The position numbers and the translations under genes were made by a program. The notes beneath the pieces are model-generated. The model worked only from the letters and a program-made list of their open reading frames with translations, was not told the origin of the DNA and did not search any database. Shown here piece by piece: positions 5,126 through 24,649 of a stretch of DNA of 32,000 nt. This DNA comes from Candidatus Harpocratesius repetitus. Its GTDB lineage: Archaea > Asgardarchaeota > Lokiarchaeia > Sigyniarchaeales > Promethearchaeaceae. Position 1 is the first letter of the stretch; every line of letters starts with the position of its first letter. Where the stretch lies: the NCBI GenBank assembly GCA_021498095.1, contig JAIZWK010000001.1, positions 3,840,001 to 3,872,000 of the forward strand. Reading direction: 5' to 3'.

Positions 5126-6238
5126 TTATTTCTTCGAATTTCGTGCACCATTAATTTCAGGTAATAAAAATGGAAAATTTTCCAGTAATAATGCGACAAT
5201 TTGCTCTACAACTTCAGAATTGTTAAAATATTCAGGGGGGTGAGAAGTAAATTTAAGTTCAAAATGAACTAAAAAGCGTGAAAGCGCGCTCTGCAAGATT
5301 TTAGAACCAGTATTGGTAACAATTACAGCGGAATAATATTTGCCAACTGATCTAAACATTGATACATCATCCGACATTATAAGATTGATAGAACTTTTAG
5401 CTAAAAAAATACTGGTGAAAATTTGATTTACCGTATTCAACAAAGCAGGGAGATTTTTATCAATCGAATTGTTTTTCTCATAAATATTTTGAAATTTTGA
5501 TCGAAAAATAATATTACCGTTGGTATCAGAAATCATAAACATGAATAAATTGGATGGAACTTGATAAAAATGATGAATATCAATTATGTAAACTGCAAGA
5601 ATCATAATAAAACCAACAATTGGAAGAGCTTTTCCTAATTCAAAGACTGCATCTTGAAAATTGCTAAAAACAGAATAATACCAGAAAATATCAGCCAATA
5701 ATAAAGTACTATATCCAATTGCAATAATTACAAACGTACAAACCAAATAAAGAGCAGTTTTTTTCCGAGAACGAATAAAATTTTTGAAATAAAAAGGAAC
5801 TGCAATACCAACATTGACAATCACACCTAAAATATTATATGAAAAATCGGCAATAAACCAAAAAAAATGAACTGCTTGTTCTGAAGCAGGTAAAAAAATA
5901 ATAAAAATTAAGGAGACTTGCTGAACAATTAATAAAATAAATGTAATTACGAATAATGTAAAATTTCGATTCACTGTACGCAAACTTTCAAGAAATAGAT
6001 ATATAAAAAATAAAGATAAACCAAAAAACATCAATTCCAGTGCAATTAATTTGCCTGAAGGAATTGATGGAAAACTAAAATTAAGAATCAAGCTAATAAA
6101 TGCTCCTATAAACATTGCCGCAAATGAAAATGGAAAAAAGGGAACATGATGTTTCGTTTTAATAGCTTTAAGTATGAAAAGGATTAATAGTACCCCTAAA
6201 AAAAAACTCAACAGTATATTTATTATAATTTCATCCAT
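5126..6238 (-). CDS. Multi-TM membrane protein with C-terminal cytoplasmic alpha/beta (longin/roadblock-like) domain
   Basis: About 7 hydrophobic segments, then FMISDTNGNIIF...YYSAVIVTN...LSRFLVHFELKF. The fold call is inference. Confidence 0.6.
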   Translation of the reverse strand: MDEIIINILLSFFLGVLLILFILKAIKTKHHVPFFPFSFAAMFIGAFISLILNFSFPSIPSGKLIALELMFFGLSLFFIYLFLESLRTVNRNFTLFVITFILLIVQQVSLIFIIFLPASEQAVHFFWFIADFSYNILGVIVNVGIAVPFYFKNFIRSRKKTALYLVCTFVIIAIGYSTLLLADIFWYYSVFSNFQDAVFELGKALPIVGFIMILAVYIIDIHHFYQVPSNLFMFMISDTNGNIIFRSKFQNIYEKNNSIDKNLPALLNTVNQIFTSIFLAKSSINLIMSDDVSMFRSVGKYYSAVIVTNTGSKILQSALSRFLVHFELKFTSHPPEYFNNSEVVEQIVALLLENFPFLLPEINGARNSKK

Positions 6239-6392
6239 GATTTTTCCAACTAAATTAAATGTGTAATTAAGTAATGAAGTTACTAAGTATGATTTATATT
6301 AAATTCTCAAATATTTCTTAAATTCTAATTAGAATTAAAAACTTAAAAGTGATAAGTATCTTTAATTAAAAAAAGTAATTTAAAAAAAAATT

Positions 6393-7955
6393 CTATTCGA
6401 ATTCAATGGTTGAAGGAGGTTTATTAGAGATGTCATATACTACTCGATTAAATCCCCGTACTTCATTGATAATTCGAGAACTGATTCGTTCCAATACGTT
6501 CCAGTCAATTTTAGCAAAATTAGCAGTCATTGCATCAATAGATTCAACAATTCTCACTGCACAAATATTTTCAAAGGTACGAAAATCCCCCATGACACCA
6601 ACTGATTTTACAGGGAGATAAACGGCAAAAGCTTGCCAAATTTGATTATACAAACCCGCTTTCTTTATTTCTTCAATGACTATGGCATCAGCTTCCCGCA
6701 ATATATCCAATTTTTCCTTCGTAATATCACCAATGCACCGTACTGCCAATCCCGGTCCAGGAAATGGATGACGTTGGATTAATTCGGAAGGTAAGCCCAA
6801 TTCTTGGCCTAACTTTCGCACTTCATCCTTGTATAAATCCCGTAACGGCTCTATTATTTTTAATTTCATGTTTTCTGGTAAAGTTAAATTATGATGAGAC
6901 TTAATTTTGCTTGAACTTTTACCTCCAGTTCCGGCTTGTGATTCGACTCGATCGGGATAAATTGTACCTTGAGCTAAAAATTCCACATTTGGATATTTTT
7001 CTTCCAATTCTCTGGCTTTTTTTTCAAATACTTCGATAAATGTGTGACCAATAATCTTTCGTTTCTGTTCAGGGTCAGTTACTTTATTCAATCGTTCAAG
7101 AAATAAATCAGAAGCATCCACCAGATGAAAATTTGAAAAATGCAAACGATCACGAAACCATTCGCAGACCTGTTCCACTTCATTTTTTCGAAGCAGTCCA
7201 TTATTTACGAAAATTAAATGCACTTGATCTTGAATTGCTTTTTTTAATAATATCGAAACAACTGAAGAATCTACCCCTCCAGAAAGGCCTAAAATTACGC
7301 TTTTATCTTGAACAACAGAACGAATTTCTTTAACAGATTTTTCAATCCAATGTTCCACCTTCCAAGACTGAGACGCATGGCAGATGTTAAATAAGAAATT
7401 CTGAAACATCTTTGATCCGTTTTCAGTATGATGAACTTCAGCGTGAAATTGAAAAGTAAAAATATTTTGAACAGGATCACCCATAGCAGCAATAGGACAA
7501 GTTTCTGTTGAGCCAAATACTTCAAAACCAGGTGGTAATTTTACAACTTGGTCACCGTGAGACATCCATACAGTTTCATTGTGAGAAAGATCAGAAAAAA
7601 TTAAATCGTTACGAGATAGAGAGAGAATTGCTTTTCCAAATTCTTTTTCTTCCCTCGCTTCAACTAAACCTCCATATTTTTGAGCGATAAGATGATGACC
7701 GTAACAAAGACCCAATAATGGAATTTGATTCTCACGAATATATTCCCATACAGAATCATTCGGTTTGGGAGCATTTTGTTCATAAACTGATGATGGCCCC
7801 CCTGAAAAAATAATACCAATAGGTTGAAGAACTTCAAGTTTTTCTCTTGTAATATTGTAAGGAACGATTTCAGAGTAAACACCGAGATCTCGGACTCTAC
7901 GGGCAATTAAGTGAGCAAGTTGTGAGCCAAAATCAAAAACAATTACTGTATCCAT
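6393..7955 (-). CDS. guaA: GMP synthase (glutamine-hydrolysing), single-chain GATase + ATP pyrophosphatase
   Basis: DFGSQ, SGGPSSVY, GLCYGHH (catalytic Cys), QFHAE, LSGGVDSSV, QGTIYPD, HPFPGPGLAVR and KPPSTIEFE. The true start is the ATG of MDTVIV at 7955. Confidence 0.97.
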   Translation of the reverse strand: MDTVIVFDFGSQLAHLIARRVRDLGVYSEIVPYNITREKLEVLQPIGIIFSGGPSSVYEQNAPKPNDSVWEYIRENQIPLLGLCYGHHLIAQKYGGLVEAREEKEFGKAILSLSRNDLIFSDLSHNETVWMSHGDQVVKLPPGFEVFGSTETCPIAAMGDPVQNIFTFQFHAEVHHTENGSKMFQNFLFNICHASQSWKVEHWIEKSVKEIRSVVQDKSVILGLSGGVDSSVVSILLKKAIQDQVHLIFVNNGLLRKNEVEQVCEWFRDRLHFSNFHLVDASDLFLERLNKVTDPEQKRKIIGHTFIEVFEKKARELEEKYPNVEFLAQGTIYPDRVESQAGTGGKSSSKIKSHHNLTLPENMKLKIIEPLRDLYKDEVRKLGQELGLPSELIQRHPFPGPGLAVRCIGDITKEKLDILREADAIVIEEIKKAGLYNQIWQAFAVYLPVKSVGVMGDFRTFENICAVRIVESIDAMTANFAKIDWNVLERISSRIINEVRGFNRVVYDISNKPPSTIEFE

Positions 7956-8329
7956 GTACAGAACTATACGATATACTTGAAAAATTTTCTTATTAATATT
8001 AGTAATGTTTAGAACAAAACACAAAATGCAATTAAATACATATTTTATGATTAAAATATATATTATTTCTAAATAAAAAGGATATTTCATTCAAAAAATG
8101 ATGTAAAATAAAAAATTTTTTTTTAAATATATATTTGAGATAAGATTTAGCATGTTTTTCCGAGATCTTCCAAAAAAGAAAGAAAAAGAATTAAAAAATA
8201 TATATTTAATTTAAAAAATATATATTCAATAGAAAACTTATCAACAGCAAAAAAATTTTTGATCAAGTTTGAACATAATGTTATCTCGTAATTGATCATA
8301 ATTATATACTTCAACACATAAATTAATTT

Positions 8330-9619
8330 ATGCTTAAAAAAACGTTTCCAAAAAAAGGAAAAGATTACTCTGAATTAAAATCAGATAAGTATGTCCAACG
8401 ATGGTTAGAGAATATATCTTCAAAAACACATAATCAGAAATTAGCAGTTTTTCAAAAATTTCTTAATTTTGTTGAGAAAAGTCCAGAAGAATTAATTTTG
8501 GAGCATTCTAAAGATTTAACTGAGATAGATCCAATTAAACGTTCAAATATCGCTAAAAGGCAATTGAACGCATATTTTCAATTTTTAAAAGGCGAACATA
8601 ATTCTTTGAATTCAAAAATGAATTCAAAGCCGATTTCTCATAACTCTGCTCGAATCAAAGTATATTCGATGATTTTAGGTTTCTATGCAAGAAATCATGT
8701 AAAAATTCAATTTGATCGAGGAGAAATACCTGCTGAAGAAAAAAAGGGAATTACTGATAAGGTTTGGCGAAATGGTAAAGATTCTGAACGTATTAGTAAT
8801 GAAGACAAAAAGGATTGGCTGAAAAAGATTTATAATCAATTTTCTACAGCAAAAAATAAAGCTATCTTTTTATGTATGAAAAGCTCAGGACTAGATCCTG
8901 TAGATCTTTTTAATTTAACTATATCAGATTATCATAAAGGATATTTTAAGAAATATAGCATATGTTATGTAGAAGGAAATCGCTCTAAAACTAAAGAAAC
9001 ATTCCAAACTTTCTTCGATAGTGAAGCTTGCGATGCACTTTACACTTATATGAAAGAAAGAAAAAGACGGGGAGAAAATTTGCAACAAAATTCATGGCTT
9101 TTTGTTGTAGATAAAAAAAATAAAAATGGGGAATATCGAAAAATGTTTTATACTCGATTTGCTATCGATCTCAAAGCAGTTTGTGAAATTCTTGAGCTGA
9201 AAAACATAACAACAAAACGAATTCGTGCGTGGTTTGATTCTAATGTAAAGAAAGGGCTTGATGCAGAGCTTCTAACCGTTTCTGAACGAATGATGGGTCA
9301 TAAGACTGATATAACTGCCAAATATCAGCAAATACTCAAAGATACTGAAGAATTCGCAAAATTCTATAAGGATGAAATAGAACCGAAACTTTTAATACTC
9401 GGACGGTCTGAATACGTGAAGAAAATAAATGAAGACATTGAATCATTGCAAAATACAATTCAGTTACAAGCTGAAAAAATAACAAAGATTGAAGCTGAAA
9501 ATAAAGAAATGAAGAAAATATTAGAAGACCGTTTGCAAAAATCAGAGAAAAACATGCAAAAGATGATGAAAATTATCGAAAATTTACAGAAAGATATGAA
9601 AAAGCAAATTTTATCTTAA
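8330..9619 (+). CDS. Tyrosine recombinase/integrase with C-terminal coiled coil
   Basis: N-terminal SAM-like region, box I-like AIFLCMKSSGLDPVDL, Lys in RSKT, KRIR (HxxR position), MMGH and KY (catalytic Tyr). The heptad-rich tail spans about the last 70 aa. Confidence 0.85.
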   Translation: MLKKTFPKKGKDYSELKSDKYVQRWLENISSKTHNQKLAVFQKFLNFVEKSPEELILEHSKDLTEIDPIKRSNIAKRQLNAYFQFLKGEHNSLNSKMNSKPISHNSARIKVYSMILGFYARNHVKIQFDRGEIPAEEKKGITDKVWRNGKDSERISNEDKKDWLKKIYNQFSTAKNKAIFLCMKSSGLDPVDLFNLTISDYHKGYFKKYSICYVEGNRSKTKETFQTFFDSEACDALYTYMKERKRRGENLQQNSWLFVVDKKNKNGEYRKMFYTRFAIDLKAVCEILELKNITTKRIRAWFDSNVKKGLDAELLTVSERMMGHKTDITAKYQQILKDTEEFAKFYKDEIEPKLLILGRSEYVKKINEDIESLQNTIQLQAEKITKIEAENKEMKKILEDRLQKSEKNMQKMMKIIENLQKDMKKQILS

Positions 9620-9763
9620 TTCATTAAGAAAAATTCTTATTTTTTTATTAGATTTTATTTCATCGTTAACAATTGCCTTCAGGTCAGCGAGAGCATAATA
9701 AAATTTTTCGAGTAAACTGTCATGATCATGAACTTGAGTATTTGTTTGCGTGTCGAGTGCCAT
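9611..9763 (-). CDS. Small hypothetical protein, 50 aa (MALDTQTNTQVHDHDSLLEKFYYALADLKAIVNDEIKSNKKIRIFLNELR)
   Basis: Hand-translated and below the ORF-track cutoff. It has an ATG start, an amphipathic helical composition, and a stop overlapping the integrase 3' end. Confidence 0.55.
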   Translation of the reverse strand: MALDTQTNTQVHDHDSLLEKFYYALADLKAIVNDEIKSNKKIRIFLNELR

Positions 9764-9852
9764 AAAAAAAAAAATATTTTGCACGGTTAAAGTCTCATAT
9801 TAAACAGTTAATAAACCAAAATCACAATTTCTATGCTTAGATTTCACTCTAC

Positions 9853-9917
9853 TTATTCTTACTTAAACCAAATTTATTCTTACTTAATCATATCTAATCT
9901 TACTTATTCTTACTTAA
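9853..9917. repeat. Three copies of TTATTCTTACTTAA (9853, 9874, 9904)
   Basis: Exact 14-mer direct repeats spaced 21 and 30 bp, plus a partial TCTTACTTA at 9898. Confidence 0.85.
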
Positions 9918-10102
9918 TAAATTAAAACACTATTTTATCTCGTTCACCAACTGCCTTTTGATGAAATTTTCTGCCAAATTGCTAAAATAGTTGAAAAAAA
10001 GTAGGTGTTAATGTTTTGAAAAATTTATTTAGATATTTTGCAAAAATGTAAAACCTTCAAATGCAGAAATAAATTCGTCAAAATTCTAAAGCAAATTTAC
10101 GG

Positions 10103-10119
10103 ATTCGCTTTAAGCGAAT
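10103..10119. promoter_or_regulatory. Perfect palindrome ATTCGCTT-T-AAGCGAAT, candidate operator
   Basis: 8-bp inverted repeat with a 1-nt spacer in the divergent intergenic region. Function is inferred. Confidence 0.45.
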
Positions 10120-10166
10120 TAATACTCTGCAGAATCGTATCTATCGTGAAGTAAATTAACTGTAAC

Positions 10167-10174
10167 TTTAAATA
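10167..10174 (+). promoter_or_regulatory. Archaeal TATA box (TTTAAATA) upstream of RHH-like ORF
   Basis: Consensus TATA box 30 nt upstream of ATG 10205. Confidence 0.45.
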
Positions 10175-10204
10175 GATGTGTTTCATTATTATTAGTGACA
10201 TATC

Positions 10205-10342
10205 ATGACAAAGCACTGTCATATTTTATTGCAAGATGATGATGTTGATTACTGCAAAAAGCATCATATTAGAATATCACCATTAGCTGCTGAATTATTT
10301 TCAGAACGTATCAAAGAATTACGACGAAAAATAGATTCATAA
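10205..10342 (+). CDS. Small ribbon-helix-helix (CopG/CcdA-like) regulator, 45 aa
   Basis: MTKHCHILLQDDDVDYCKKHHIRISPLAAELFSERIKELRRKIDS reads as an alternating beta strand followed by two helices. Hand-translated and not in the ORF track. Confidence 0.6.
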   Translation: MTKHCHILLQDDDVDYCKKHHIRISPLAAELFSERIKELRRKIDS

Positions 10343-10681
10343 ATTACACTCCAACAGGAGAAGAAAATGAATATATCACACCTAATATTGAGCTTCACAC
10401 CTTCTCCTGTTCTTTTTTTCAGCCGATTTTTTTGACTCACACACTTAAAACTCACAATTTTTTAAAATGTATGGATAAAAACTCGAAAAAAGAAAAAGAA
10501 GTGCTTTCGGAGTCTCCCTACTCAGAAAGCAATTGAAATGAACGAAATATAGATATTCTCTATAGTATTATTGCGATTTATCACATTTAAGCTTTCATTA
10601 TTAATCACCCAATAGCTCAAATTGATCATAAATTGTTCATTCTCGATCATCTCTTTCTGTTTTTCACACACAAAAAAAGGA

Positions 10682-11056
10682 ATGAACGAAATGTCGACTC
10701 AAACTCAAACTCACGCATCATATACGTATGCTGAAGAAAAATTAAGTGATATTCTGTTCTATTGCTCGAAAATCCCCACTAATTCAATACGTAAGTTGCC
10801 GTATGATTACCGGGAACATTTACGAGATTATTATCTAACGTTTAGACACAATAACTCGTTGATTGAACGTGCATTAGAAGCTATCCAACCGTTAATAAAC
10901 GAAAATTTTCAATCCGATCTTTATAATGGTTTACAAAAAGCGAAATTTTGGATTGTGAAGCGAAAACCTGAAACTTATGAAATAGATAAGGAATATCGTG
11001 CGTTGAGTTATCTCACACTCGCAATCTCTACTCTAAATATTCAAAATCTTGTGTGA
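10682..11056 (+). CDS. Hypothetical helical protein upstream of primase-helicase
   Basis: Open frame with ATG at 10682 or 10691, co-oriented and tightly packed with the primase operon. Confidence 0.7.
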   Translation: MNEMSTQTQTHASYTYAEEKLSDILFYCSKIPTNSIRKLPYDYREHLRDYYLTFRHNNSLIERALEAIQPLINENFQSDLYNGLQKAKFWIVKRKPETYEIDKEYRALSYLTLAISTLNIQNLV

Positions 11057-11057
11057 A

Positions 11058-11147
11058 ATGAGCAAAACAAGAAATTTTTTCAAACAACAACAACAAAAAC
11101 AGAATCAGTTAAAATTAGAAGCCAAAAATGAAAAAAGTGAAAAATAA
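11058..11147 (+). CDS. 29-aa micro-ORF (MSKTRNFFKQQQQKQNQLKLEAKNEKSEK) coupled to primase start
   Basis: It starts 1 nt after the upstream TGA, and its TAA overlaps the primase ATG (TAATG). Confidence 0.45.
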   Translation: MSKTRNFFKQQQQKQNQLKLEAKNEKSEK

Positions 11148-14100
11148 TGAATAAATTAAAAAAAAAGACTTCTAATAAAACTAATTTGCCTATTTGGGAG
11201 AGCATTAAAGCAAAAATTTCAATCTCTGATTTAGTTACTATTGAGAATGATTCGTTTGAATGTCCATCAGAAGGCAATAAAACAGGAAAATCTTGCGTAT
11301 ATTATCCAGAAACAAAGACATGGTATTGTCACAAATGTAAAAGAGGTGTTGACGTCATTGATTTATATGCAGTTCAAAATAATTGTTCACGCTCTGAAGC
11401 AATTAAAAAAATGGCTGTAGAGTATAAAATCCCTATGACAAATATGAGTAAAGAACAAATCAAAATGAAACAATCCGTGCAGGAAGTTCATGAATTCTTT
11501 ACTCAATTATGTGAAAAACGAATCAAAGAAGCAAAAAAAGGATTTTATTTTGAAAAGGTAATGAAAGATCGAGGATTTACTGAAGAAACAATGATTCAAA
11601 AAAGAATTGGGCTTTTTGATTCTACAGTTAAAGCCAAATTGTATGAAAAATACGGAGATAAAACTGCAATTGTAGAGAATCCTCACCATATTTTGATTGA
11701 AGCTGGTTTTTGTAACCAAAAAGGCAATTTTTCATTTGCAAAAAGAATTGTCTATCCATATCTTGATACAAATAAACGCCCATACTTCTTCATTTATCGT
11801 TTAATAAAAGGTGAGCCAGATTTTGCAGATGATCGGAAATATGTGAAGCAGTACACAAAAAATAGAGATTATATAGACCATAATCTCTTTGGTTTAGATT
11901 CAATTTCTGATAGAGAAATGCGAAAGAAATCTTTGATTATAACTGAAGGAATCACTGATGCAATTTCAGTGATTCAAGCTAAATTCCCCTGCATTTCACC
12001 CGTTACAATTCGATTTCAGAAAAAAGATTTAGAGAAAGTGCCAAAATATTGCAAACGTTTTTCTAAAGTCGTAGTGATCATGGATAATGAAGAAAATGAA
12101 AAAGGTTTAGAAGGTGCAACAGAAGCTGTCGAATTTTTAGTAGAAAATAATATTTCAGCTTATATAGGCATAATTCCAAATCCAGAAAATCTCAAAAAGA
12201 TTGATTTAGATGATTATCTTAAAAAAGGAAAAACAATTGAAGAACAAACAGAGTTATTACAAAAACTCGTAGATTCTGCTCAAGAAGGTAGAGCATTTTT
12301 AGTTTCTCAGCTTAAAACTTTTCCTCTAGGTGAAGTTAGAGATGAGAAGATTGAAAACCTTATTCTAAGTGCTAAATATTCTCCAACTTTTGAGATATAC
12401 AATCGTAAGTTGATCACTAAAGAACTTGGAATAACTGCAGGAGAATATAAGCTTTTTGATAATCGGATTAAAAAGCGAATTAAAGAACAAAAAAAGGCTG
12501 AAAAAGAAGAAAGAGATAGAGAAGCTGCCAAACTGCGAAAATTCATTCTTAATGAACGAATGAATGAAATTGAAGTGCTCAATCAAACAAATGCAATTCA
12601 ATTATCTACTATAGAACAATCTCAAATTGCTGATTTACAAGAACTCCCAGAAGGAAAATCAGAGAAAATAGAAATTCCAAATTGTGAATTTGTCGAGATA
12701 ATTCGTGATAATGCGGTAGAAGTTCGTTTAGAATTAAACAAGGGGATTCAACTCACTCGATTTACGATAATTAAAGAAGAGGTTGTGCCTGACCCTGAAT
12801 GGATCTATAGATGGGATGTGTTTACAATAACCGCAAAATATCTTATTCGATTCCCTAATCGCACCGAATGGCGATATGATTTTCTTATACAACGAGATAG
12901 CATAATCTATAAGCGATCTGATTGCAGTGAGGAAGAGTTAAAAAGTTTTTTGGTTGAAAAATGTAGCCAAATTTCTGGAGTGCGACCTTATTTGAATGCT
13001 GTGCTTCCCAAATATATCGGAGCGAGTTCACTTGATAAAACCGAGTTGTTTTCCGATGTGTTAGGATTTACTATCAAAGGTTGGAAACTCCCTCCCAAAT
13101 ATCTCTTTCGATCTCCCGAAGATTCTATTGCTAAAATTCATAAGAACATGAAAGATCTTATGGAACGAGAATATCATTACGGCTATCCTAAAACGACTCG
13201 AAAATATATTTCTAAGACAGATACTGAAGTTATACGACTATTTGAAAAGGATGGTTATACTCAACAAGGAGAGAATGATTTTAATGAGTTAATTTATGAA
13301 AAACCAATTAAATATGAAGGAGATCCAGAAATTAAAGAGTTAAAATGGGATTATCATAGTGCAACTCAAAAAACGGAAGTATGGGATTCTAAAACTGATA
13401 CATATACTATATGGGAGATTACTGAAACTTTATCAGTGCCTAAAGCTGAAGAAGTTAAACGATATTTTAAAGAGCTCTACAACAACACAGGCATTCAATA
13501 CAAAGATCTTATCTTTGCCTTTGGACTTTATCAACCATTTGGACATGCATTAAAAGCTCATACCAACCTTCAACCAATCTTAACAATGGAAGGATTACCA
13601 GGCGTTGGAAAAAGTGAAGCAACCGATATGATAACTTTAGGTTTCTGGGGGAATCATACACTCTTAGCTATATCAGAATTAGCTTCTCAAAGTCGTGCGA
13701 AAGGATTCTTAGCAAGTTCTACATTTTCGATTGGAATTGATGATGCGGAAGATATGAAAGAATTTTTAAAGGGGATCTTAAAAACACTCACAACTAAAAC
13801 AGTGAATTTCGTTGTTAAAGGAGGTGGAAAAACAAAACAAGAGTATGTTGTAGATAGACCATATTGCTCTATGCTAATCCCCAATTTTAACACACGAGCT
13901 GATATGTTTAAGGAAGATGATGCATTAGGCACTCGAAATATCAATTTGAAGATTACTCAATTAGAAGAAAAATTCAATTGGGGAAAAGTGTATAAATCTA
14001 AACCATCTGGTTATATAGGACGTTATATAATAGAACAAACGAAAAGATGGAATCTTGAGAATCTTGTAGATATTTATGAAAATGCATCTAATACTTTTAT

Positions 14101-14965
14101 TAAAGGGCGATCACGAAAAATTGAAAAAATTTTAGGTGTTGGAAAATGGATCTCTGAAAATCTCTTAGGATTACCTTTAGATATGAAAGATCTGAAATAT
14201 GTAATCACTGAAACAGTTTCTACAAATGCAATGAACATGATAGATTATGTTATCACTATGATTAGAGATGGGCGATATAGATCTTATCATCACCGAAATG
14301 ATAATGGAGAAATTGATTATACTTATTATGATTATAATCATTCACATCATTGGATTAAACATCCAATTTGCGAAGTTTCGTGTAAGATCGATGGGAAAAC
14401 GATGAATGGTTTTGGACTCTCAGCAGATAATATCGCAGATCTTCGTAAACGCCTTGAATTAAAAAAAACATGGGGATTTGAAGAACTTTATTCAAAACTA
14501 CATGCAAAACTCTCAAATGCTGAAATTGGTCGAAAAAATCTTCGATTTTATGATAAAGAAGCTCATGATTGGAAAAAATGGCAACGAAAATGTCTCTTTA
14601 TTTCAACTAAAGATATTGAAGATTTGGGGATAAACTTAGATGGGCAAATCGAAAAAGATGAAACTATTAAAGATGAATCTCTTGATATGTTTACCGATAC
14701 AAAAAAAGAAGAAAGAAAGTCAGCTCAAGGTTTTGGACTAGGTGAACCAATATATAGTGCAGATATATTCGCTATTATCAAAGAATTATATGAGAAAACA
14801 CGTGAACCAATCAATCATTCAGAAATCTTTGTTGAAAGTGTGAATAAACTAAAAATAGCAAAAAGAAAGATGTTTGATAATGCATTGAATTGGTTAGTAA
14901 AGTTTGATTACGTTGGTTTAGAAGAAGATTCAAATAATAATAATAAATTCTATTACCCAATTTAA
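11147..14965 (+). CDS. Fused DnaG-type primase (CHC2-like Zn finger + TOPRIM) / P-loop (SF3/AAA+-like) helicase with C-terminal winged helix
   Basis: CPS...SC...WYCHKCKRGVDVID zinc-binding domain; RIVYPY; TEGITDA and IMDNE (TOPRIM); KIDLDDY; Walker A GLPGVGKS; Walker B IGIDDAE; ALGTR (Arg finger-like); C-terminal wHTH-like segment. Confidence 0.88.
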   Translation: MNKLKKKTSNKTNLPIWESIKAKISISDLVTIENDSFECPSEGNKTGKSCVYYPETKTWYCHKCKRGVDVIDLYAVQNNCSRSEAIKKMAVEYKIPMTNMSKEQIKMKQSVQEVHEFFTQLCEKRIKEAKKGFYFEKVMKDRGFTEETMIQKRIGLFDSTVKAKLYEKYGDKTAIVENPHHILIEAGFCNQKGNFSFAKRIVYPYLDTNKRPYFFIYRLIKGEPDFADDRKYVKQYTKNRDYIDHNLFGLDSISDREMRKKSLIITEGITDAISVIQAKFPCISPVTIRFQKKDLEKVPKYCKRFSKVVVIMDNEENEKGLEGATEAVEFLVENNISAYIGIIPNPENLKKIDLDDYLKKGKTIEEQTELLQKLVDSAQEGRAFLVSQLKTFPLGEVRDEKIENLILSAKYSPTFEIYNRKLITKELGITAGEYKLFDNRIKKRIKEQKKAEKEERDREAAKLRKFILNERMNEIEVLNQTNAIQLSTIEQSQIADLQELPEGKSEKIEIPNCEFVEIIRDNAVEVRLELNKGIQLTRFTIIKEEVVPDPEWIYRWDVFTITAKYLIRFPNRTEWRYDFLIQRDSIIYKRSDCSEEELKSFLVEKCSQISGVRPYLNAVLPKYIGASSLDKTELFSDVLGFTIKGWKLPPKYLFRSPEDSIAKIHKNMKDLMEREYHYGYPKTTRKYISKTDTEVIRLFEKDGYTQQGENDFNELIYEKPIKYEGDPEIKELKWDYHSATQKTEVWDSKTDTYTIWEITETLSVPKAEEVKRYFKELYNNTGIQYKDLIFAFGLYQPFGHALKAHTNLQPILTMEGLPGVGKSEATDMITLGFWGNHTLLAISELASQSRAKGFLASSTFSIGIDDAEDMKEFLKGILKTLTTKTVNFVVKGGGKTKQEYVVDRPYCSMLIPNFNTRADMFKEDDALGTRNINLKITQLEEKFNWGKVYKSKPSGYIGRYIIEQTKRWNLENLVDIYENASNTFIKGRSRKIEKILGVGKWISENLLGLPLDMKDLKYVITETVSTNAMNMIDYVITMIRDGRYRSYHHRNDNGEIDYTYYDYNHSHHWIKHPICEVSCKIDGKTMNGFGLSADNIADLRKRLELKKTWGFEELYSKLHAKLSNAEIGRKNLRFYDKEAHDWKKWQRKCLFISTKDIEDLGINLDGQIEKDETIKDESLDMFTDTKKEERKSAQGFGLGEPIYSADIFAIIKELYEKTREPINHSEIFVESVNKLKIAKRKMFDNALNWLVKFDYVGLEEDSNNNNKFYYPI

Positions 14966-15068
14966 TAAAACCTAATGTTTTTTTTGCTTTTTTAGGTTTA
15001 CACAAACTTTCTAAAACTATGTGCAACTTTTGGGTTATCTATTGCGAGTTAGAAAAATGAAAATTTGT

Positions 15069-15527
15069 GTTGATCTGTTGATCTAATGATCAACGGCAAG
15101 ATACAATCATACAAGTTGTTATAATTGAGATACAAATGAGTGTTGATTGTCCTGTTGATCTTGTTGATCTACTGTTGATCTTGTCAGAATGAAGATCAAC
15201 TCAAATCTATTATGAATTAGCTAATTATTAGAGAGATGAAGTCAAAAATAAATTTTTCGTTGATCTTACTCTGAAACACACCCTATATATATAAAAAAAT
15301 AAAAAAAAATCTATCATATGACAGAAAGGTATATGTAAAAATTTTTTTTCTCTCGTAACGAGGATGTGTTTTTCAGAAGAGATCAACTAGTACTAGTAAC
15401 TAGCTAAATATTATATATTATATAAGAATTAAAGAGCTACAGAGTAGTATCTAAGTAATTTTTCAGTTGATCTTACAGATCAACAGGGGATCAACACAAG
15501 ATCAACAGATCAACTAAATTGATCAAC
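15069..15527. repeat. Dyad-symmetric iteron array (15 GTTGATC/GATCAAC heptamers) flanking an AT-rich core; putative replication origin
   Basis: GTTGATC at 15069, 15077, 15154, 15163, 15174, 15259 and 15466. GATCAAC at 15088, 15194, 15381, 15478, 15489, 15500, 15508 and 15521. AT-rich core at about 15283-15350. Confidence 0.85.
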
Positions 15528-15686
15528 TTCTCAAGTATGTTTAATTTTATCCTTTTACATATTCTGATCTTTCTTACCTCAAAATCCCGAAAAAATTTCC
15601 CAAATCCGACTTTTCTGACCAAAAACATATCATATTTTTCAGAAAATGGCGAAACGCTTAAATAATTGAAGTTCTTTTATTTAACT

Positions 15687-16217
15687 ATGAGTAAACATTT
15701 TGATCCTATTTCTTTTGAATCTTTTTGCGATTATTTTCCCCAATTTCTCAATATAGAGTTTCCACAGGTGGATTTGATACATTTATGGGTAGTTGGAGCA
15801 AGATTCGGGATCGGAAGGTTGCATCTGGAGAAAAAAGATGAGATTTGGCAAATTTGGATGAAAGAATTGATGCTACCATTTTCAGAGCTGAAAGTTTTGC
15901 ATTGGGCTAACTTAACATTTACACAACACGGAAATCTTCCTGAAGTGATAACTCCTGCGGATGAATTTCACAAGATTGTAATTGATGGAGAAAAATTCCA
16001 ATGGCAGAAAGACAAAGATCTTTATGAGTTTTTCAATAAGAAATATAAAAAAGATTTTGAGAATTGGGTCTATAATGCTAGTTTAAGACCTGCTATTAAC
16101 CATTTTTCCAAAGGCAATAATTTATATCTCAATGTTGCAAAGTTGCGAAAAAAAGGGAAAAAAGGTGATCTTGATGAGTCGTTTGAAGAGATCCCATCAA
16201 AATTTATATATTTCTAA
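15687..16217 (+). CDS. Hypothetical protein
   Basis: Open frame with ATG at 15687, preceded by a TTAAATA TATA-like box at about 15658. No recognised motif. Confidence 0.7.
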   Translation: MSKHFDPISFESFCDYFPQFLNIEFPQVDLIHLWVVGARFGIGRLHLEKKDEIWQIWMKELMLPFSELKVLHWANLTFTQHGNLPEVITPADEFHKIVIDGEKFQWQKDKDLYEFFNKKYKKDFENWVYNASLRPAINHFSKGNNLYLNVAKLRKKGKKGDLDESFEEIPSKFIYF

Positions 16218-16465
16218 ATAGTTCCATCTTTCTTTTTGTTTTGTCTTACTCTTCTTGCCCTGATATTCTTGATGAATTCAGCAAATACAAGATCATCATA
16301 TTTATTCTCAAAACAGTCAACACAAAAGTATTCTTTGTTAAATCGTCTTAGTTCATTCGTGATTTCTCCACATTCAGAGCAAATATTCAATGAATATCCT
16401 GAATAAACACCTTCTAATTTAACGACATTTTGTCTTAAACTTTGATTTCCAGTAATGTATGCCAT
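16214..16465 (-). CDS. Small zinc-finger protein
   Basis: CSEC-x15-CVDC with a basic C-terminus; ATG start. Confidence 0.7.
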   Translation of the reverse strand: MAYITGNQSLRQNVVKLEGVYSGYSLNICSECGEITNELRRFNKEYFCVDCFENKYDDLVFAEFIKNIRARRVRQNKKKDGTI

Positions 16466-16559
16466 AATTATTTTTTTTCAAATTTTTCTTTTAAAGAGAA
16501 ATTGGTAAATGATTTTTTAATTTGTTCTTTTAGTAAAAATTAGATTATTCTGAGATTTT

Positions 16560-16612
16560 ATTCGACCAAATTCGACCAAATTCGACCAAATTCGACCAAA
16601 TTCGACAAAATT
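16560..16612. repeat. Tandem 10-bp repeat (ATTCGACCAA)x4 + ATTCGACAAA
   Basis: Directly visible perfect tandem array in a divergent intergenic region. Confidence 0.95.
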
Positions 16613-16681
16613 ATTGATTATTTTGCTTAATTGATTAATAAGAATGCTTTTTTATTTGAATTTGTATTTGATATTTATCTT

Positions 16682-17536
16682 ATGACTGATACTAATGATG
16701 AGGAAACTGAAGAAAAACTTCCCAATTCATCAATTTTGGAATTAATTCAAAAACAAAGTAAAACAATTTCTTCACCTTTATACAAATCTGTCTCTACACT
16801 CCAAGATACTTTTAAAAACATACAAGAAACAATCAAACCTGTTTTTCTAGATCTAAACAAATCAATTAATAACGTTTTCACTTCAAAAACAATACCTCTT
16901 TCTGATTTAAGCAAAATGTGTTCATTAATAAAACCAATCTTTGAATCTTCAAAAATTATCGCTCTTTATTCATCAAATCTTTCCTTCTTATCACCTAATC
17001 CCATTCTTAACGTAAATTATGAATACCATGATGTTTCTGTTGATGTATATGAAAAAGTATTAACGACCTTATCTGAGTTTATTCCCCATTTAGAACGAAT
17101 AGAAGTATCTTTAGAGATGGAAGATTATTCAAATGCACAAATTGAAGATGAAATTCATGAACTTAAGGCGATTGTGAAAAATACCTTAAATAATTCTGAA
17201 ATTATTAAGAAAAATATTAATAAATTAAATGAAAACTTAAATATCTTAAAATGGATGCAATTATTAGTTGGAAAAAAAGATAATATCAAAGATATTGATT
17301 TAATTCAAAATTTTAAAATTACACTCGAAGATTCAGATTTGCCTAGAAAAACAAAAGAACAAGAACTAAGCTCTCTGATGATTGCGTTAAATTACATTTC
17401 GCTTTATAAAGAAGTGTATAAAGAATCGGAATCTAAGAAACTCCTTCAATCTTTGAAAGAATTAGGTTCAAGTATAAAAGATGAATTATTGGTTAAAGGA
17501 TTAGAATACGCAATTCAACTTTTATTATCTCTGTAA
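16682..17536 (+). CDS. Hypothetical alpha-helical/coiled-coil protein
   Basis: Long open frame with probable ATG at 16682. No recognisable catalytic motif. Confidence 0.7.
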   Translation: MTDTNDEETEEKLPNSSILELIQKQSKTISSPLYKSVSTLQDTFKNIQETIKPVFLDLNKSINNVFTSKTIPLSDLSKMCSLIKPIFESSKIIALYSSNLSFLSPNPILNVNYEYHDVSVDVYEKVLTTLSEFIPHLERIEVSLEMEDYSNAQIEDEIHELKAIVKNTLNNSEIIKKNINKLNENLNILKWMQLLVGKKDNIKDIDLIQNFKITLEDSDLPRKTKEQELSSLMIALNYISLYKEVYKESESKKLLQSLKELGSSIKDELLVKGLEYAIQLLLSL

Positions 17537-17555
17537 TTTTCTTAAGTGTTTAACT

Positions 17556-18368
17556 ATGCCAAAACAAAATCCCAAACATAACAAAAGAAAACTTAAAAAC
17601 AATCCTAAACATAACAAGAAGAACATCTTAAACCAATCTATACAAAATGACTTAAGATATAGTGACAATCTTCATTCCCCTTTTGAAAATGATTTATATC
17701 CAATTCTTATTCAACAAAAGATAGATCAATCTGAATATGGGAAAAAACGAATTAGAGATTTATCATATTTAGAATTTAAAAAAGCAACTATCACGTTTAT
17801 TGGAATTCAGAATATCAAAGAAAGTTTATTAAAATTAACTTATGATGTTTATTCTCTGGGGGCAGATACAATGCCCCTTGCAATTATGAATTATTTAACT
17901 TATGATTTCAACAGACAAAGAGAAAAGTGTTTTGCAAAAGATTTTTCTAAATTCGCTAATACAACAAATCCTCCTTACATTGAAGGGTTTACTGAACGAC
18001 AAATTCAAGATTTTTATAGATTTCATAAATTATGTCGTGAAAATAAACATAATTTCACGATATCACAGAAAGCACACATTTTGACCTTAATCCCAACAAA
18101 TTATAGTTCAGGGTCTTTATCACCAGAAGAAGATGAAAATTTCACTTCAATTCTATCTAATTATACTTCTAATAATTTTTGCAGACAATGTAATGATCCT
18201 TTTTGTTGTTTAATAAATCCTATTGAATATCCTAGTGCAAAATGGGGAAATTCTCCAAGTGAAAGAGAATATTGTTTCTTTTTACAAGATCAGAAATGTG
18301 TTGCTTATGATTTTCGTCCTAATGTTTGTCATCAATTTGATTGTTTTAAAACAGCATGTTCGATATGA
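17556..18368 (+). CDS. YkgJ-like cysteine-cluster (CxxCxxCC) protein
   Basis: C-terminal CRQCNDPFCC...CFFLQDQKCVAYDFRPNVCHQFDC. The basic N-terminus carries NPKHNK twice. Confidence 0.8.
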   Translation: MPKQNPKHNKRKLKNNPKHNKKNILNQSIQNDLRYSDNLHSPFENDLYPILIQQKIDQSEYGKKRIRDLSYLEFKKATITFIGIQNIKESLLKLTYDVYSLGADTMPLAIMNYLTYDFNRQREKCFAKDFSKFANTTNPPYIEGFTERQIQDFYRFHKLCRENKHNFTISQKAHILTLIPTNYSSGSLSPEEDENFTSILSNYTSNNFCRQCNDPFCCLINPIEYPSAKWGNSPSEREYCFFLQDQKCVAYDFRPNVCHQFDCFKTACSI

Positions 18369-18865
18369 AATGTTAGATATGGATGCATATCACTTAAAGT
18401 AACTGAACATTTTCTTAGTTTTGAGCGATATACTGCACCCAATGTTTTTCTAATTCGATCTACTGAGTAGTAATCATCTAAAATCGCTAAATATTCATAA
18501 TCTCTTAATGAACGATAGATTCTATTAATTGAAACGTCTGAATAGAGCAAAATATCTTTAGACTTCCGAAAGTTGATTTGGTAAAGTCGTGTGTTCATAA
18601 ACATTATCTCTTGTTTCTTACTCTCATAATGTCCTGTTCCGTGAAAATCATGCAGATAAATTTTTCTTTTTAAAGAATTTAAACGCATTGCGTTTAGATT
18701 CATAGCTGCAATCATAAGTTTAACAGTTGCATCTCTAGCTTCTTCTTTGGAGAAGTAATAAAGAGATAATTCAACGTTTTCTAACGTAAAATCTGATTTT
18801 AGATAGTCTACGTTTAAATTGTGTTCTATTTCATCCATTTCTTGCGTTTTTGTTTTAATTGCCAT
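18332..18865 (-). CDS. Hypothetical protein (third gene of resolvase operon)
   Basis: 177-aa ORF with ATG start, 6 nt downstream of the preceding gene's stop. Confidence 0.7.
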   Translation of the reverse strand: MAIKTKTQEMDEIEHNLNVDYLKSDFTLENVELSLYYFSKEEARDATVKLMIAAMNLNAMRLNSLKRKIYLHDFHGTGHYESKKQEIMFMNTRLYQINFRKSKDILLYSDVSINRIYRSLRDYEYLAILDDYYSVDRIRKTLGAVYRSKLRKCSVTLSDMHPYLTFHIEHAVLKQSN

Positions 18866-18871
18866 TCATCT

Positions 18872-19402
18872 TCACTCTCTTAATCGATCACGATAAAGTT
18901 CTTTATATTTTTGACTTATATGATTATATAACTCTCGATAATCGAACTCTCGAGTTTGTTCTTGTCTTAAAATGAGTTGATAAAGATGCTTTAAAGCCGA
19001 TGCTTTATACATTTTGCGAAAATCTTGTAAATCTCTCTTAATAAACGATTTTAACACTAAAATCTTGTTCCAATATCTTTTTTCGCTCAAAATTAAGGGA
19101 GTTTCACGTATTTTAGCACAAATCTTTTCGTTTCGTTGTTTACGTTGACTTTCTCTTCCATTTCTCAATATTTCCCCAATTCCATGAGGAGAATTGATTT
19201 GTTTCCGTTTTTGAGATGAATGTGTCTCAAACGGATGATTTTCACGTATTTTTTTTGCTTGAACATAACGATCTTCAATCTGCATTTTACGTTTTGATAA
19301 TTTTTTGCTCTCATATTCTCCCCAATTGCGATTCAGACCTAATTCATCAGCCATTTTAAGGAATTCATTAGCAGATTTCGATTTTTTGATTGGATTTTTC
19401 AT
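18872..19402 (-). CDS. Highly basic hypothetical protein
   Basis: 176-aa K/R-rich ORF with an ATGA overlap with the resolvase stop. Confidence 0.7.
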   Translation of the reverse strand: MKNPIKKSKSANEFLKMADELGLNRNWGEYESKKLSKRKMQIEDRYVQAKKIRENHPFETHSSQKRKQINSPHGIGEILRNGRESQRKQRNEKICAKIRETPLILSEKRYWNKILVLKSFIKRDLQDFRKMYKASALKHLYQLILRQEQTREFDYRELYNHISQKYKELYRDRLRE

Positions 19403-20052
19403 TTTGCATATATCCCCCTAATATTAATTCCATTTTTTTTATCTTTAGCAAGTTTCTTAAGCCTTCTATAGACTGTTGTTGAACTACTGCCCACGATTTT
19501 TGCTATGTTCGTGCAACCTAATCCTAATTTATATAATCGAACAATTTCTTTTTCATTTAACTCAATCTTCTTTCTACCCATCACTACTCCGTTTGCAATA
19601 GCGATTTCACGTCCTCGTTGAAGCCTTTCTCTTATTGAATTTGCTTGATATTCAAGAAAAGCAACGTAGTTTGTCAGCATAAACTTCCCTGTGGATGTGG
19701 TTGTGTCAATTTTCATTCCTGAAATTGTTATAATTTTTTTATCAATTTCATCCATTTTTTGTATAAATTGAAGCAAATTTAGAGCAGATCGCCCAATTCT
19801 GCTTAGATCATAGCAGATAATTCCTTCTATATCTTCATTTTCTGCAAGATCATTTAACATTTGTTGAAATTGAGCTCGATTTTTTTCTTTGAAACCTGAG
19901 ATTCCGTCATCCTTAAAAAATTTTTCAACGATTATCTCAGGATGTCTTTTGAGATATGATTTGATCTCAAAAATTTGATTCTCTATTGTATTATCCTGCT
20001 TTTGTTTTATACTACTTACTCGACAATATGCATAAAATTTACGTGTATTCAT
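19399..20052 (-). CDS. Small serine recombinase (resolvase/invertase) with C-terminal HTH
   Basis: YAYCRVSS (catalytic Ser), RAQFQQML, DLSRIGRS, TGKFMLT, ERLQRGR...MGRK and HTH LGCTNIAKIVGSSSTTVYRRL. Confidence 0.93.
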   Translation of the reverse strand: MNTRKFYAYCRVSSIKQKQDNTIENQIFEIKSYLKRHPEIIVEKFFKDDGISGFKEKNRAQFQQMLNDLAENEDIEGIICYDLSRIGRSALNLLQFIQKMDEIDKKIITISGMKIDTTTSTGKFMLTNYVAFLEYQANSIRERLQRGREIAIANGVVMGRKKIELNEKEIVRLYKLGLGCTNIAKIVGSSSTTVYRRLKKLAKDKKNGINIRGIYAK

Positions 20053-20139
20053 AATAGAATTATAGATTTCAATAATTTATAATTAACATATTAAATATCA
20101 AACATAATTTTCTTATTTCTGAAATAATTCATACTCGCA

Positions 20140-20189
20140 AATATTTGAGATGGAATTTTTGCATTTTTTTTTATTCCATCAAAAATATT
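20140..20189. promoter_or_regulatory. Imperfect inverted repeat (15/17) upstream of resolvase; candidate res/inversion subsite
   Basis: AATATTTGAGATGGAAT-16 bp-ATTCCATCAAAAATATT. Function is inferred from position. Confidence 0.35.
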
Positions 20190-20296
20190 AATAAAAACTC
20201 GATCAACTATTAATTTCCAATATATAGCAAAAATCATGATAATAGAGAGATGTTCTCTGACAATACTTTTTAGGTTAAATAAATAAAATATAAGAT

Positions 20297-22165
20297 ATGG
20301 TATGCCCAAAATGTCAATCCCTTTATATTATTGAGGGATCAGAGAAGAAATGGTGTCCTAATTGTAATCCACCTGAAAATATATTAAAGATTTATAATAA
20401 GAATGAAGCCATTGATATTCTACGAACAGAGCTTGAGGAATTAAAAAACTATGTTAAATTGATTATTAAGGGATACTCTCTTTTAAGTTTATTAAAATTT
20501 TTCAATAATATACGCAATAATCCTATGTTATTCAATATTAGTCCAGAGAAAAATGAATTTTTACAAAAATGGTTTGAAATCTCATACTTAATGAGCTGTA
20601 TTGGAAATATACACAAAAATCAACCAGATTTATTTGGAACAACAAATGAACTTAATGAAGAGCACATTAATGAATTGATTCACTATTCTACTAAATTATA
20701 TCTTTCAAATATTTTCTCATATCATATTATGAATGATAGAATGATGATGGTTTTGTATAAAGATGATCCTGTTTATCAAGGACACCAAATTAAATTTACT
20801 GAAAAATGGCAACCAATAAAAGCAAGGATGGAATTATTAGGATTTACTGCATATGAATCAGAAACTAATACAATTTATTCTTATATGCTCTGGTTTCGTA
20901 AGGAAGAATTAAGAACTATAGTACAAGAAATCAGTAAGGAGATAAAAGATGGTGCAGAAATATTCGAATCAATACGTTGGGAACAATGGTTGAATTTTAC
21001 TTATCCTCTGGAAGATTACCCAATTAGAAAAAAAGGAACACGGTTGAATAGTCTTTTCTTATTCTTAGAGAAAATCAGTGATATTAAAACTAGTATAATT
21101 TCCTTAAAAAAATGGGAATGGCTAAAAAAAAAATATATCCAATCGGAAGATCTTAGAATTTTAGAATATAATACAATTTCAAAATCTTCTTCAAATTTTG
21201 ATGTTCCGGGTTTATTCTTTTTGTATTCAGATTATATTTTTATCCCATATATATTTCTTAATAGGTTTGTAAAATCTAAAAAAAAAATATATTTTAATCC
21301 TAATTCTGGAAAATTTCTAAATCTTTATGGAAAAATTGTTGAGTTAAAAATAAAGAAATGGATTACTACTATTAACGTTGATTTTCGAGATAAAAACTCG
21401 AAAATATTATTTCGATATAAAAATAAAGAAATTCATCCTACAGAAGAACTATTTGATTTAGGATATATTCACCATCCCACTCAAAGTTTTTTCATTATTG
21501 AAGTTAAAGCTCCCATTCGATTTAATTTCAACCAAGATTTAGAAAAGTTAATTCAAAAAGATTTTGATGAATTTAAAGACAGAGATATTCCAAGAATCAA
21601 AGAAAATTTAGATAAAATTGGGATTAAAGGTTATAAATTGTTTCCAATTTTTATGCATTTTTCAAGTTTCATAAATATGCACCCAAAATTTATACCAAAT
21701 ACTACAATCGATGGAATAAAAATCGCCACATCAAAATCTGAAGTTCATTCTATTACATATTCTACTTTAAAAGAATGTGATCCCAATTTGAGTTTTGAAG
21801 ATTTATATAATATACCATATGACTTAGAAACAATCTCTAAAAACAAAGAAATTAAATTCTTTTTAGAAAATTATACTTGGAATTATAGAGACGTTTCAGA
21901 TATAATTCATTTAGGAAAAAAGGATGAATTCTATTTTAATTCTGTTGAAATTCTTCAAATTAGTTTATCTATGGATCCTCCGGAAATTGTTGTTAAATCA
22001 ATTAATCAAGATCGATCAGAAATAGGAAATATAGATATTCCTAAATATTTATTTGATGTTGCAAAAAATCAATTAGTAAAGGGCGATAAACTTAATATTC
22101 TCATCTATAGATTCTTTACTGATTCACCTGTAATTGTTCTTGTTCAATTTACTAAGATAAATTGA
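20297..22165 (+). CDS. Zn-ribbon + helical + PD-(D/E)xK (NERD-like) nuclease domain protein
   Basis: N-terminal CPKC...CPNC; GKIVE...ELFDLG...FIIEVK nuclease motif; beta-rich C-terminus. Confidence 0.65.
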   Translation: MVCPKCQSLYIIEGSEKKWCPNCNPPENILKIYNKNEAIDILRTELEELKNYVKLIIKGYSLLSLLKFFNNIRNNPMLFNISPEKNEFLQKWFEISYLMSCIGNIHKNQPDLFGTTNELNEEHINELIHYSTKLYLSNIFSYHIMNDRMMMVLYKDDPVYQGHQIKFTEKWQPIKARMELLGFTAYESETNTIYSYMLWFRKEELRTIVQEISKEIKDGAEIFESIRWEQWLNFTYPLEDYPIRKKGTRLNSLFLFLEKISDIKTSIISLKKWEWLKKKYIQSEDLRILEYNTISKSSSNFDVPGLFFLYSDYIFIPYIFLNRFVKSKKKIYFNPNSGKFLNLYGKIVELKIKKWITTINVDFRDKNSKILFRYKNKEIHPTEELFDLGYIHHPTQSFFIIEVKAPIRFNFNQDLEKLIQKDFDEFKDRDIPRIKENLDKIGIKGYKLFPIFMHFSSFINMHPKFIPNTTIDGIKIATSKSEVHSITYSTLKECDPNLSFEDLYNIPYDLETISKNKEIKFFLENYTWNYRDVSDIIHLGKKDEFYFNSVEILQISLSMDPPEIVVKSINQDRSEIGNIDIPKYLFDVAKNQLVKGDKLNILIYRFFTDSPVIVLVQFTKIN

Positions 22166-22700
22166 TATTATATTCTAAAAAGCACTCTGTTCAAAAATAG
22201 AGAATAAATCCTTTTGAAAGAATGGAAATAATAGATTATGAAAGGTTTAAAGTAATCATTTATTTTTTTAAGAATCTTTATCAACATTTGATAGATTGAT
22301 AAAAAATTGAAAATCATGCATATTTTATGCACTTGCTGATATTCCATCTCAATTTGAAATTAGTCGATTAAAAATTTAGAAATATTATTATCAATTTCAA
22401 CTATATTTTGATTAAAATAATCAAAAATCGACCCATAATTATTTTTTCTAAATCTCATTTTTACCGACTGAAATAATTTTTGGATAGATTTGATTATTGT
22501 TGGAAAATTAATGATATAAATTGTAATTCAGTCAAAAATAAAGAAGGTGCAGGAACCTCTTAAAAAAAGCCGCAAATTAAAAAAGAAATGAGATGAAGTT
22601 GATATTAATTAAAATCCGAAAAAAGTAAAATATCTGATAATAATTAATTTTCATTATCTTTGTTATTTAAATTATTATAATCATAACTTATACTAGAAGA

Positions 22701-24368: not shown

Positions 24369-24649
24369 AAGAATATTAAAAAAATACTTCAGAGAATCTA
24401 AATCTTAAACTTGAAATAAAAATCAAAATTAGTGTTAATAAGTAGAATTAAATTCAAGATTAAGAAAATCTAACCAAAGTAAAAATAATGGTGTTTCTTC
24501 AATAATAAAGCATTTCTCTTTCCATATCTTTCAAAACGTTTTATAATACATACCAATTCATCACGATCATAATATAGAATTAAAGAGAGTTTAATAAATC
24601 ATCAATAGATTGTTTTTTTACTTTCATTTACTATATTTCATTCAACCAA

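Follow-up and report, generated by a model that had tools for sequence, protein, structure and literature searches.

A Candidate SaPI-Type Iteron Origin Directly Behind a Primase-Helicase Gene in a Genomic Island of an Asgard Archaeon

The repeat array at positions 15069-15527 of the window, by which the whole 32,000-nt stretch of DNA analysed here is meant, is most probably a replication origin of the type found in the SaPIs, in which iterons flank an AT-rich region, and would serve the island of about 36 kb that lies beside guaA in this Promethearchaeia genome. The array is situated about 7 kb inside the island, directly downstream of the gene for a fused primase-helicase, P0001, which would act as the initiator. 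The number and orientation of the iterons, the low stability of the core, the position of the array between two genes, the predicted fold of the helicase, and the recurrence of arrays behind homologous genes all argue for this function, and the steps that an origin of this type implies, namely binding, melting, bidirectional loading, and continued replication of the element, are those that we infer.

Iteron Array and AT-Rich Core

The host genome consists of a single contig of 4.36 Mb with 31% G+C. The initiator gene, the array, and its surroundings comprise the following features, given in window coordinates.

11147-14965, forward strand: initiator gene P0001, intact, 1272 aa, with Pfam, NCBIfam, and PHROG matches.
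14974-14995, forward strand: T-rich run, T8 and then T6, directly after the stop codon, read from the sequence.
15069-15094, no strand: left outer iteron cluster, copies in the orientations + + -.
15142-15200, no strand: left inner iteron cluster, with a degenerate GTTGATT at 15142, three forward copies at 15154, 15163, and 15174, and an inverted copy at 15194.
15259-15282, forward strand: innermost left iteron (15259) and left arm of the inner imperfect inverted repeat.
15283-15350, no strand: central AT-rich core, candidate DNA-unwinding element, 85% A+T, with TATATATA and A/T tracts.
15362-15387, reverse strand: right arm of the inner inverted repeat and innermost right iteron (15381).
15386-15433, no strand: two ACTAGT (15386 and 15392) and a second AT-rich run of low stability, from the stability scan.
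15466-15527, no strand: right iteron cluster, with a forward copy at 15466, reverse copies at 15478, 15489, 15500, 15508, and 15521, and a degenerate copy at 15518.
15666-16217, forward strand: next gene downstream, a 183-aa frame with a likely ATG at 15688 and no family match.

The first-pass annotation of this DNA had described fifteen GATC-containing heptamers, a left arm that is mostly forward and a right arm that is mostly reverse, an inner imperfect inverted repeat, three right-hand copies spaced by 11 bp, and ACTAGT palindromes next to a second AT-rich run, and all of these descriptions were borne out by recounting. The 15 exact heptamers comprise seven forward copies of GTTGATC, starting at 15069, 15077, 15154, 15163, 15174, 15259, and 15466, and eight reverse copies of GATCAAC, starting at 15088, 15194, 15381, 15478, 15489, 15500, 15508, and 15521. 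In 12 of the 15 copies, the heptamer is extended to GTTGATCT, and two more heptamers, at 15142 and 15518, carry one mismatch. The enrichment that the same annotation had proposed to count is very strong. The whole window contains 17 heptamers versus 3.9 +/- 1.9 after shuffling, a number that none of 100 shuffles reaches, while the 692 copies found across the 4.36-Mb genome lead to an expectation of 0.07 per 459 bp (Poisson P ~4e-30). Moreover, the array region is the only one among the 500-bp windows of the genome that holds at least four heptamers. Thus, the presence of 15 iterons against 0.07 expected, in the sole cluster of this kind in 4.36 Mb, argues for an origin.

The two halves of the array face each other, with six forward and two reverse copies on the left and one forward and six reverse copies on the right (Fisher P 0.04). 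The last two copies of the left outer cluster (15077/15088) form the palindrome GTTGATC-TAAT-GATCAAC. In the right cluster, the copies follow each other at 12, 11, 11, 8, and 13 bp, the two 11-bp steps being those of 15478/15489/15500, and since spacings elsewhere vary likewise between 8 and 13 bp, helical phasing of the iterons is not strict. The innermost pair of iterons (15259/15381) leads into the inner imperfect inverted repeat, in which, allowing one gap, 19 of 23 aligned positions match. The core enclosed between these innermost iterons (15266-15380) is 115 bp long with 75% A+T, and the least stable 40-mers of the region, at ~15280-15320 and 15394-15433, belong to the top 0.5% within the 32,000-nt window; the run at 15386-15433 is a possible second melting site. 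When folded as single-stranded DNA, a 476-nt stretch forms a nested palindrome with z = -7.8 with respect to shuffles, and the inner 138 nt reach z = -4.1. Opposed arms that flank an AT-rich core of low stability, together with this strong dyad symmetry, are again in favour of an origin. An independent Logan contig, whose run may come from the same sample, covers 12293-15785 with zero differences and, therefore, the array is no assembly artefact.

The first iteron (15069) begins 104 bp past the stop of the initiator gene (14965), and the T-rich run that lies in between is probably, by its sequence, an archaeal oligo-T terminator of that gene. On the other side, the last iteron ends ~160 bp before the likely start codon of the gene at 15666-16217, whose promoter region is outside the array. 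This position, after the helicase gene and its T-rich terminator and ahead of the next promoter, is one that would suit an origin. A transcribed non-coding RNA or a coding segment, which the first-pass annotation had named among the findings that would speak against its reading, did not appear: an Rfam scan of 14600-16000 at E <= 1 returned two chance-level matches and no RNA family in the array, and the open reading frames include no credible one over 15069-15527. A scan for sigma-70 promoters and terminators did not rise above shuffles, the sigma-70 model being inapplicable to archaea. Three to four copies of TTATTCTTACTTAA are found at 9853-9920, in the intergenic region between divergent genes that precedes the replication operon, and may be an operator of the regulators of the element.

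The Primase-Helicase P0001 and Its Proposed Mode of Action

P0001 is single-copy in the genome and combines several modules in one polypeptide. Its N-terminal third consists of a DnaG-type zinc ribbon and a Toprim primase (aa ~38-390; TIGR01391, E 3e-22), followed by a linker and then by an AAA+ helicase (aa ~760-1170) with the Walker A motif GLPGVGKS. A disordered linker (aa ~1177-1198) leads to a winged-helix-like tail (aa ~1204-1269). With 115 representatives at E <= 1e-3 in a set of 1.84 billion proteins, the helicase family is a small one, and the ATPase motifs are kept across its alignment.

The C-terminal 533 residues were modelled with AlphaFold using 77 relatives, giving a mean pLDDT of 89 and an arrangement of AAA+ core, beta-rich domain, disordered linker, and a tail of three helices and a beta hairpin. 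The best folds returned by VIA-align were the SCCmec helicase Cch (5dgk, Z 19.3 over 342 residues) and the SaPIbov1 Rep (8tch, Z 16.4), with matches that cover 314-342 residues; cellular MCMs rank after both, at Z ~14, and Foldseek also returns PriRep1 and the NrS-1 helicase. Judged by this predicted fold, P0001 is closest to a hexameric helicase of the Rep/Cch, MCM-like kind. Since Cch and the SaPIbov1 Rep are self-loading initiators of the system that has origins of this design, the proximity of the fold supports the reading of the array as an origin.

The tail is predicted to be a winged helix: in the AlphaFold model, aa 1204-1269 adopt the helix-helix-helix-hairpin topology of that fold with a pLDDT of 80-88. 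Refolding of the tail from its single sequence was poor (pLDDT 63) and gave no hairpin, Pfam at E <= 5 yielded no match for it, and a sequence search of the PDB returned nothing significant (E 0.3-0.8; some of the hits, a cullin and ScpA, are winged-helix domains, to which no weight was given).

In the proposed mechanism, the winged-helix-like domain at the flexible C-terminal end of P0001 would recognise the GTTGATC(T) iterons, and one hexamer would be assembled on each of the two oppositely oriented iteron sets, that is, one per arm. The AT-rich core at 15283-15350 would then melt, perhaps together with 15394-15433, and the short spacers between inverted iterons (15077/15088 and 15466/15478) could possibly open as well. 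The helicase would subsequently load itself, and the fused DnaG-type primase would start synthesis. The heptamers had been taken in the first-pass annotation for binding sites of the winged helix of the helicase, next to a DNA-unwinding element; the arrays behind eight of 13 homologous genes and the similarity to the Cch and SaPIbov1 Rep fold lend support to this proposal, in which the winged helix comes from one AlphaFold model and binding is what we infer.

Arrays Behind Homologous Genes

The DNA downstream of the helicase gene was compared in 13 non-redundant homologous loci from related Promethearchaeia genomes and from metagenome contigs, an array being defined by the most frequent non-trivial 7-mer, counted on both strands over the 500 bp past the stop codon, with at least five copies. 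Such an array is present in 8 of the 13 loci and the other five stay below the threshold, while ~10% of the non-coding 500-bp windows of the host genome reach at least five copies (binomial P ~1e-5). Read by eye, the eight arrays consist of repeats in two orientations around an AT-rich core, each with a word of its own, and since all the array sequences differ, kinship among the genomes is no concern for this count. The eight arrays are the following.

G020: after a syntenic 1254-aa primase-helicase, word AGGTTACA.
G021: word AACTTGATCC.
G019: word GGAACAAT.
G105: word AAACTAT / ATAGTTT, five copies at an exact 11-bp spacing facing two forward copies, with an AT-rich core of ~180 bp.
Second element of G020: word GCTACCA.
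G017: word TTACAAA.
L005: word GAGGTAATTT.
L002 (GCA_019058215.1): word TTGTAAATTAT, with an AT-rich core that is also enclosed by an inverted repeat of 47 nt.

The recurrence of arrays with their own words behind 8 of 13 homologous genes argues for an origin. So does the behaviour of the two homologs with in-frame stops (G009 and G010), both of which are devoid of an array. The first-pass annotation had expected homologous elements to carry iteron arrays after the same gene, with sequences that co-vary with the winged helix. The first part of this expectation stands, with other words after the gene; as to the second, the iterons of G021 share the core TTGATC with those of P0001 and the C-terminal tails of the two proteins have no detectable sequence similarity, so that co-variation of tail and iteron, though plausible, is not demonstrable in this pair.

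The modules of the initiator family seem to have been shuffled. The G020 homolog (L036:7229-10993, reverse strand) shares with P0001 the primase half alone, at 42% identity, and the helicase halves are unalignable and the iterons also differ. In the G021 homolog (L025:1258-3906, reverse strand), MCM_N and MCM_OB replace the primase ahead of the same helicase core. The closest relative of the initiator gene with a taxonomic label comes from a Promethearchaeia MAG. A single scan of viral contigs yielded no relative, and a scan of genome contigs by full-length alignment returned mostly distant DnaG-type primases from other phyla. Around several such distant primase loci, in Methanobacteriota and bacterial MAGs, dense clusters of 6-11 copies of a 7-mer are located within 1-2 kb of the primase gene, some of them upstream (L011 1661-1990; L013 1436-1754; L019 4188-4446; L021 4245-4555).

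Other Functions Considered for the Array

Partition sites, and control loci such as P1 incA and P4 crr, are likewise marked by repeat arrays that run both ways. The array could thus be a centromere-like partition locus or a locus for copy-number control or incompatibility (handcuffing), bound by the initiator or by another protein of the element, with initiation taking place elsewhere, and any of the three family-less genes downstream (15666-18368; Pfam, NCBIfam, and PHROG scans) could encode a DNA-binding protein for this purpose. Nevertheless, no ParA/ParB-like gene is found among the ORFs scanned, a centromere would not need an AT-rich core of low stability, the genome has one cluster and no separate origin with the same iterons, and the site directly 3' of the helicase gene recurs among relatives, all of which makes this function very unlikely.

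Still less probable is a role as an operator or promoter region for the genes from 15666 onwards, to which a small regulatory protein of the element would bind instead of the helicase. The array does lie upstream of the next gene on the forward strand, and archaeal TATA-like AT-rich boxes are present. However, 15 mirrored sites over 460 bp are far above known operators, the last iteron ends ~160 bp ahead of the likely start codon, and arrays follow the helicase gene whatever is downstream, including convergent genes (L002 and the P0002 contig).

The arms of attP sites and pac sites are made up of several short protein-binding repeats around AT-rich spacers, and a resolvase-family gene is located 4 kb away, but a recombination or packaging site (attP arm-type sites, a res site of the serine recombinase at 19399-20052, or pac) is extremely improbable, as the array is intact ~7 kb inside a ~36-kb insertion, whereas integrated elements split attP, res sites have ~120 bp with three subsites, the scanned ORFs include neither a terminase nor a capsid gene, and the array tracks the helicase gene across relatives and not the recombinase. 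All three functions account less well than a replication origin for the AT-rich core, for the presence of just one such cluster in the genome, and for the recurring association with the helicase gene.

Comparison with Known Origins

SaPI origins extend over ~300 bp directly downstream of rep and contain 6-12 penta- to heptanucleotide iterons that are opposed around an AT-rich region of ~100 bp, with a few inverted iterons inside each arm; Rep, a helicase that loads itself, reads these iterons through a winged helix located in its flexible C-terminal tier and melts the origin without ATP (PMC9371898; bioRxiv 10.64898/2026.10.17.759575). The origins of SaPI1, SaPI5, and SaPIbov1 are those of Ubeda et al. 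2007 and 2012, as cited in PMC9371898. The layout of the present array matches these published origins (PMC9371898; bioRxiv 10.64898/2026.10.17.759575), which is a further argument for its reading as one. As in the SaPIs and other PICIs, the array lies immediately 3' of the helicase gene (14965 to 15069), has two opposed sets of short iterons (7-8 bp here versus 5-7 bp there) around an AT-rich region of ~100 bp, includes in each arm a smaller number of inverted iterons, which have short spacers, and falls within a total size of 300-460 bp. The initiator, too, is an AAA+ helicase, and its predicted winged-helix-like tail would correspond to the flexible C-terminal tier of the SaPI Rep, which is hexameric.

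There are also clear differences. The host is an Asgard archaeon and not a Firmicute, there are 15 iterons instead of 6-12, and a DnaG-type Toprim domain is fused to an MCM-like helicase, whereas SaPI5 has a fusion of an AEP primase with an SF3 helicase and SaPIbov1 a separate primase. Moreover, neither a module for helper-phage packaging nor one of the Stl type could be recognised here, so that the likeness claimed is to the origin of these elements rather than to the PICI class as a whole.

In satellite phage P4, the alpha protein joins a primase of the Toprim type and an SF3 helicase to a winged-helix domain at its C-terminus, which binds the origin by reading short iterons in both orientations; these iterons are distributed over two separate sites (ori and crr). 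P0001 resembles it in joining primase, helicase, and a winged-helix-like domain, here a predicted one, in one polypeptide, and differs from it in its MCM/Cch-like helicase and in the single iteron cluster of the genome.

An archaeal precedent for a dyad-symmetric origin right behind a primase-helicase gene is provided by the Sulfolobus plasmid pRN1, in which the essential cis element is found within 166 bp downstream of orf904 (Berkner et al. 2014, PMC4234260). However, that element is a single stem-loop of ~100 nt with no multi-copy iterons, and its initiator combines a prim-pol with an SF3 helicase. An origin of the pRN1 type was rejected for the present element, which has a 460-bp multi-iteron array and a DnaG-type primase.

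Classical iteron plasmids (P1, F, pSC101, and RK2) have direct repeats of 17-22 bp that lie to one side of the unwinding element and are bound by a Rep that is not a helicase, and they need the DnaA and DnaB of the host (review PMC4980987). They share with the present array that repeated initiator sites, candidate ones in this case, adjoin an AT-rich unwinding element. A classical Rep_3/RepA-type origin was rejected because the repeats are 7-8 bp long and occur in both orientations and on both sides, and the neighbouring ORFs contain no Rep_3-type match. An archaeal chromosomal origin (ORB, orc1/cdc6) was also discarded, since the 20 largest ORFs in the window include no member of the Cdc6/Orc1 family and the array resides in a strain-specific insertion.

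The design as such is not new, since SaPI/PICI elements have it and P4 and pRN1 have related ones. What is new is the host lineage, the fusion of a DnaG primase with an MCM-like helicase as initiator, and the many perfectly conserved iterons, and a literature search found no paper that describes an origin with iterons in a mobile element of Asgard archaea. A SaPI-style helicase gene with its own iteron origin and an MCM-like, self-loading helicase would thus span Bacteria and Archaea. The Promethearchaeia are an Asgard lineage near the root of eukaryotes and, to our knowledge, they lack a shuttle vector, which is usually built from a minimal replicon. A putative origin of 460 bp and one initiator gene represent a testable cis/trans pair for a mobile element of these archaea.

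GATC Content and Methylation

Every iteron contributes one GATC, which amounts to 15 in 459 bp versus one per 277 bp genome-wide; the motif is not avoided in the host genome. A host gene (G000:C1:1099405-1100319; L041:1375-2289) closely resembles the GATC-specific adenine methylases DpnM (E 3e-75) and Dam (E 5e-48), and a fragment resembling N6_Mtase is located upstream of it. Methylation of all 15 iterons is plausible from these sequences. GATC occurs in only two of nine related arrays, those of P0001 and G021, and is therefore not a rule of the family.

Adenine methylation of the iterons might gate the binding of the initiator, newly replicated, hemimethylated origins being either refractory or preferred, as at the E. 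coli oriC and the P1 oriR; this is a speculation and an unlikely one. If true, the origin of this archaeal mobile element would be timed by methylation.

The Island and Its Surroundings

As judged from sequence comparison, the DNA just after guaA is a strain-specific insertion of ~36 kb (window ~8100 to beyond 32000; G000 3848100-3884360). The family of the host genome comprises 13 other genomes. In a genome of the same genus, sequence that is found 36 kb further on here comes within ~120 bp past guaA, and from 8 kb onward in the window nothing is conserved in two same-genus genomes. A search for attachment sites returned no direct repeat of at least 14 bp between the left 500 bp of the island and 15.5-45 kb, and a putative integrase at 8330-9619 had no Pfam match at E <= 5. 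Scans of the 8-22 kb ORFs with Pfam, PHROG, and NCBIfam gave no capsid, terminase, or packaging families, and most of these ORFs match nothing.

In the Logan contigs of the one public run that contains the sequence, examined for window 6001-26000, the k-mer depth is ~20 for the guaA contig versus ~10 or less for the island, a depth that derives from contigs only and that, as contig depth, cannot reveal replication. Since the island has about half of the depth of the guaA contig, and since no RNA run is listed, there is no sign of episomal amplification or of activity. One Logan contig joins 20500 to 22904 through a weak joint, with just 21 letters on one side. On this evidence, which is weak, the island may be missing from part of the population.

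Several repeats were also observed in the island. At its left edge, beside the start of guaA (8195-8276), there is an AT-rich repeat of 45-80 bp with at least 15 copies elsewhere at 83-100% identity. A sequence of ~300 bp at 22254-22584 has more than 20 scattered copies in the genome at 83-86% identity and looks like a repeat of the MITE/SINE type. Finally, a copy of the segment at 25066-25987, with 87% identity, is located 9 kb beyond the end of the window, within the same island.
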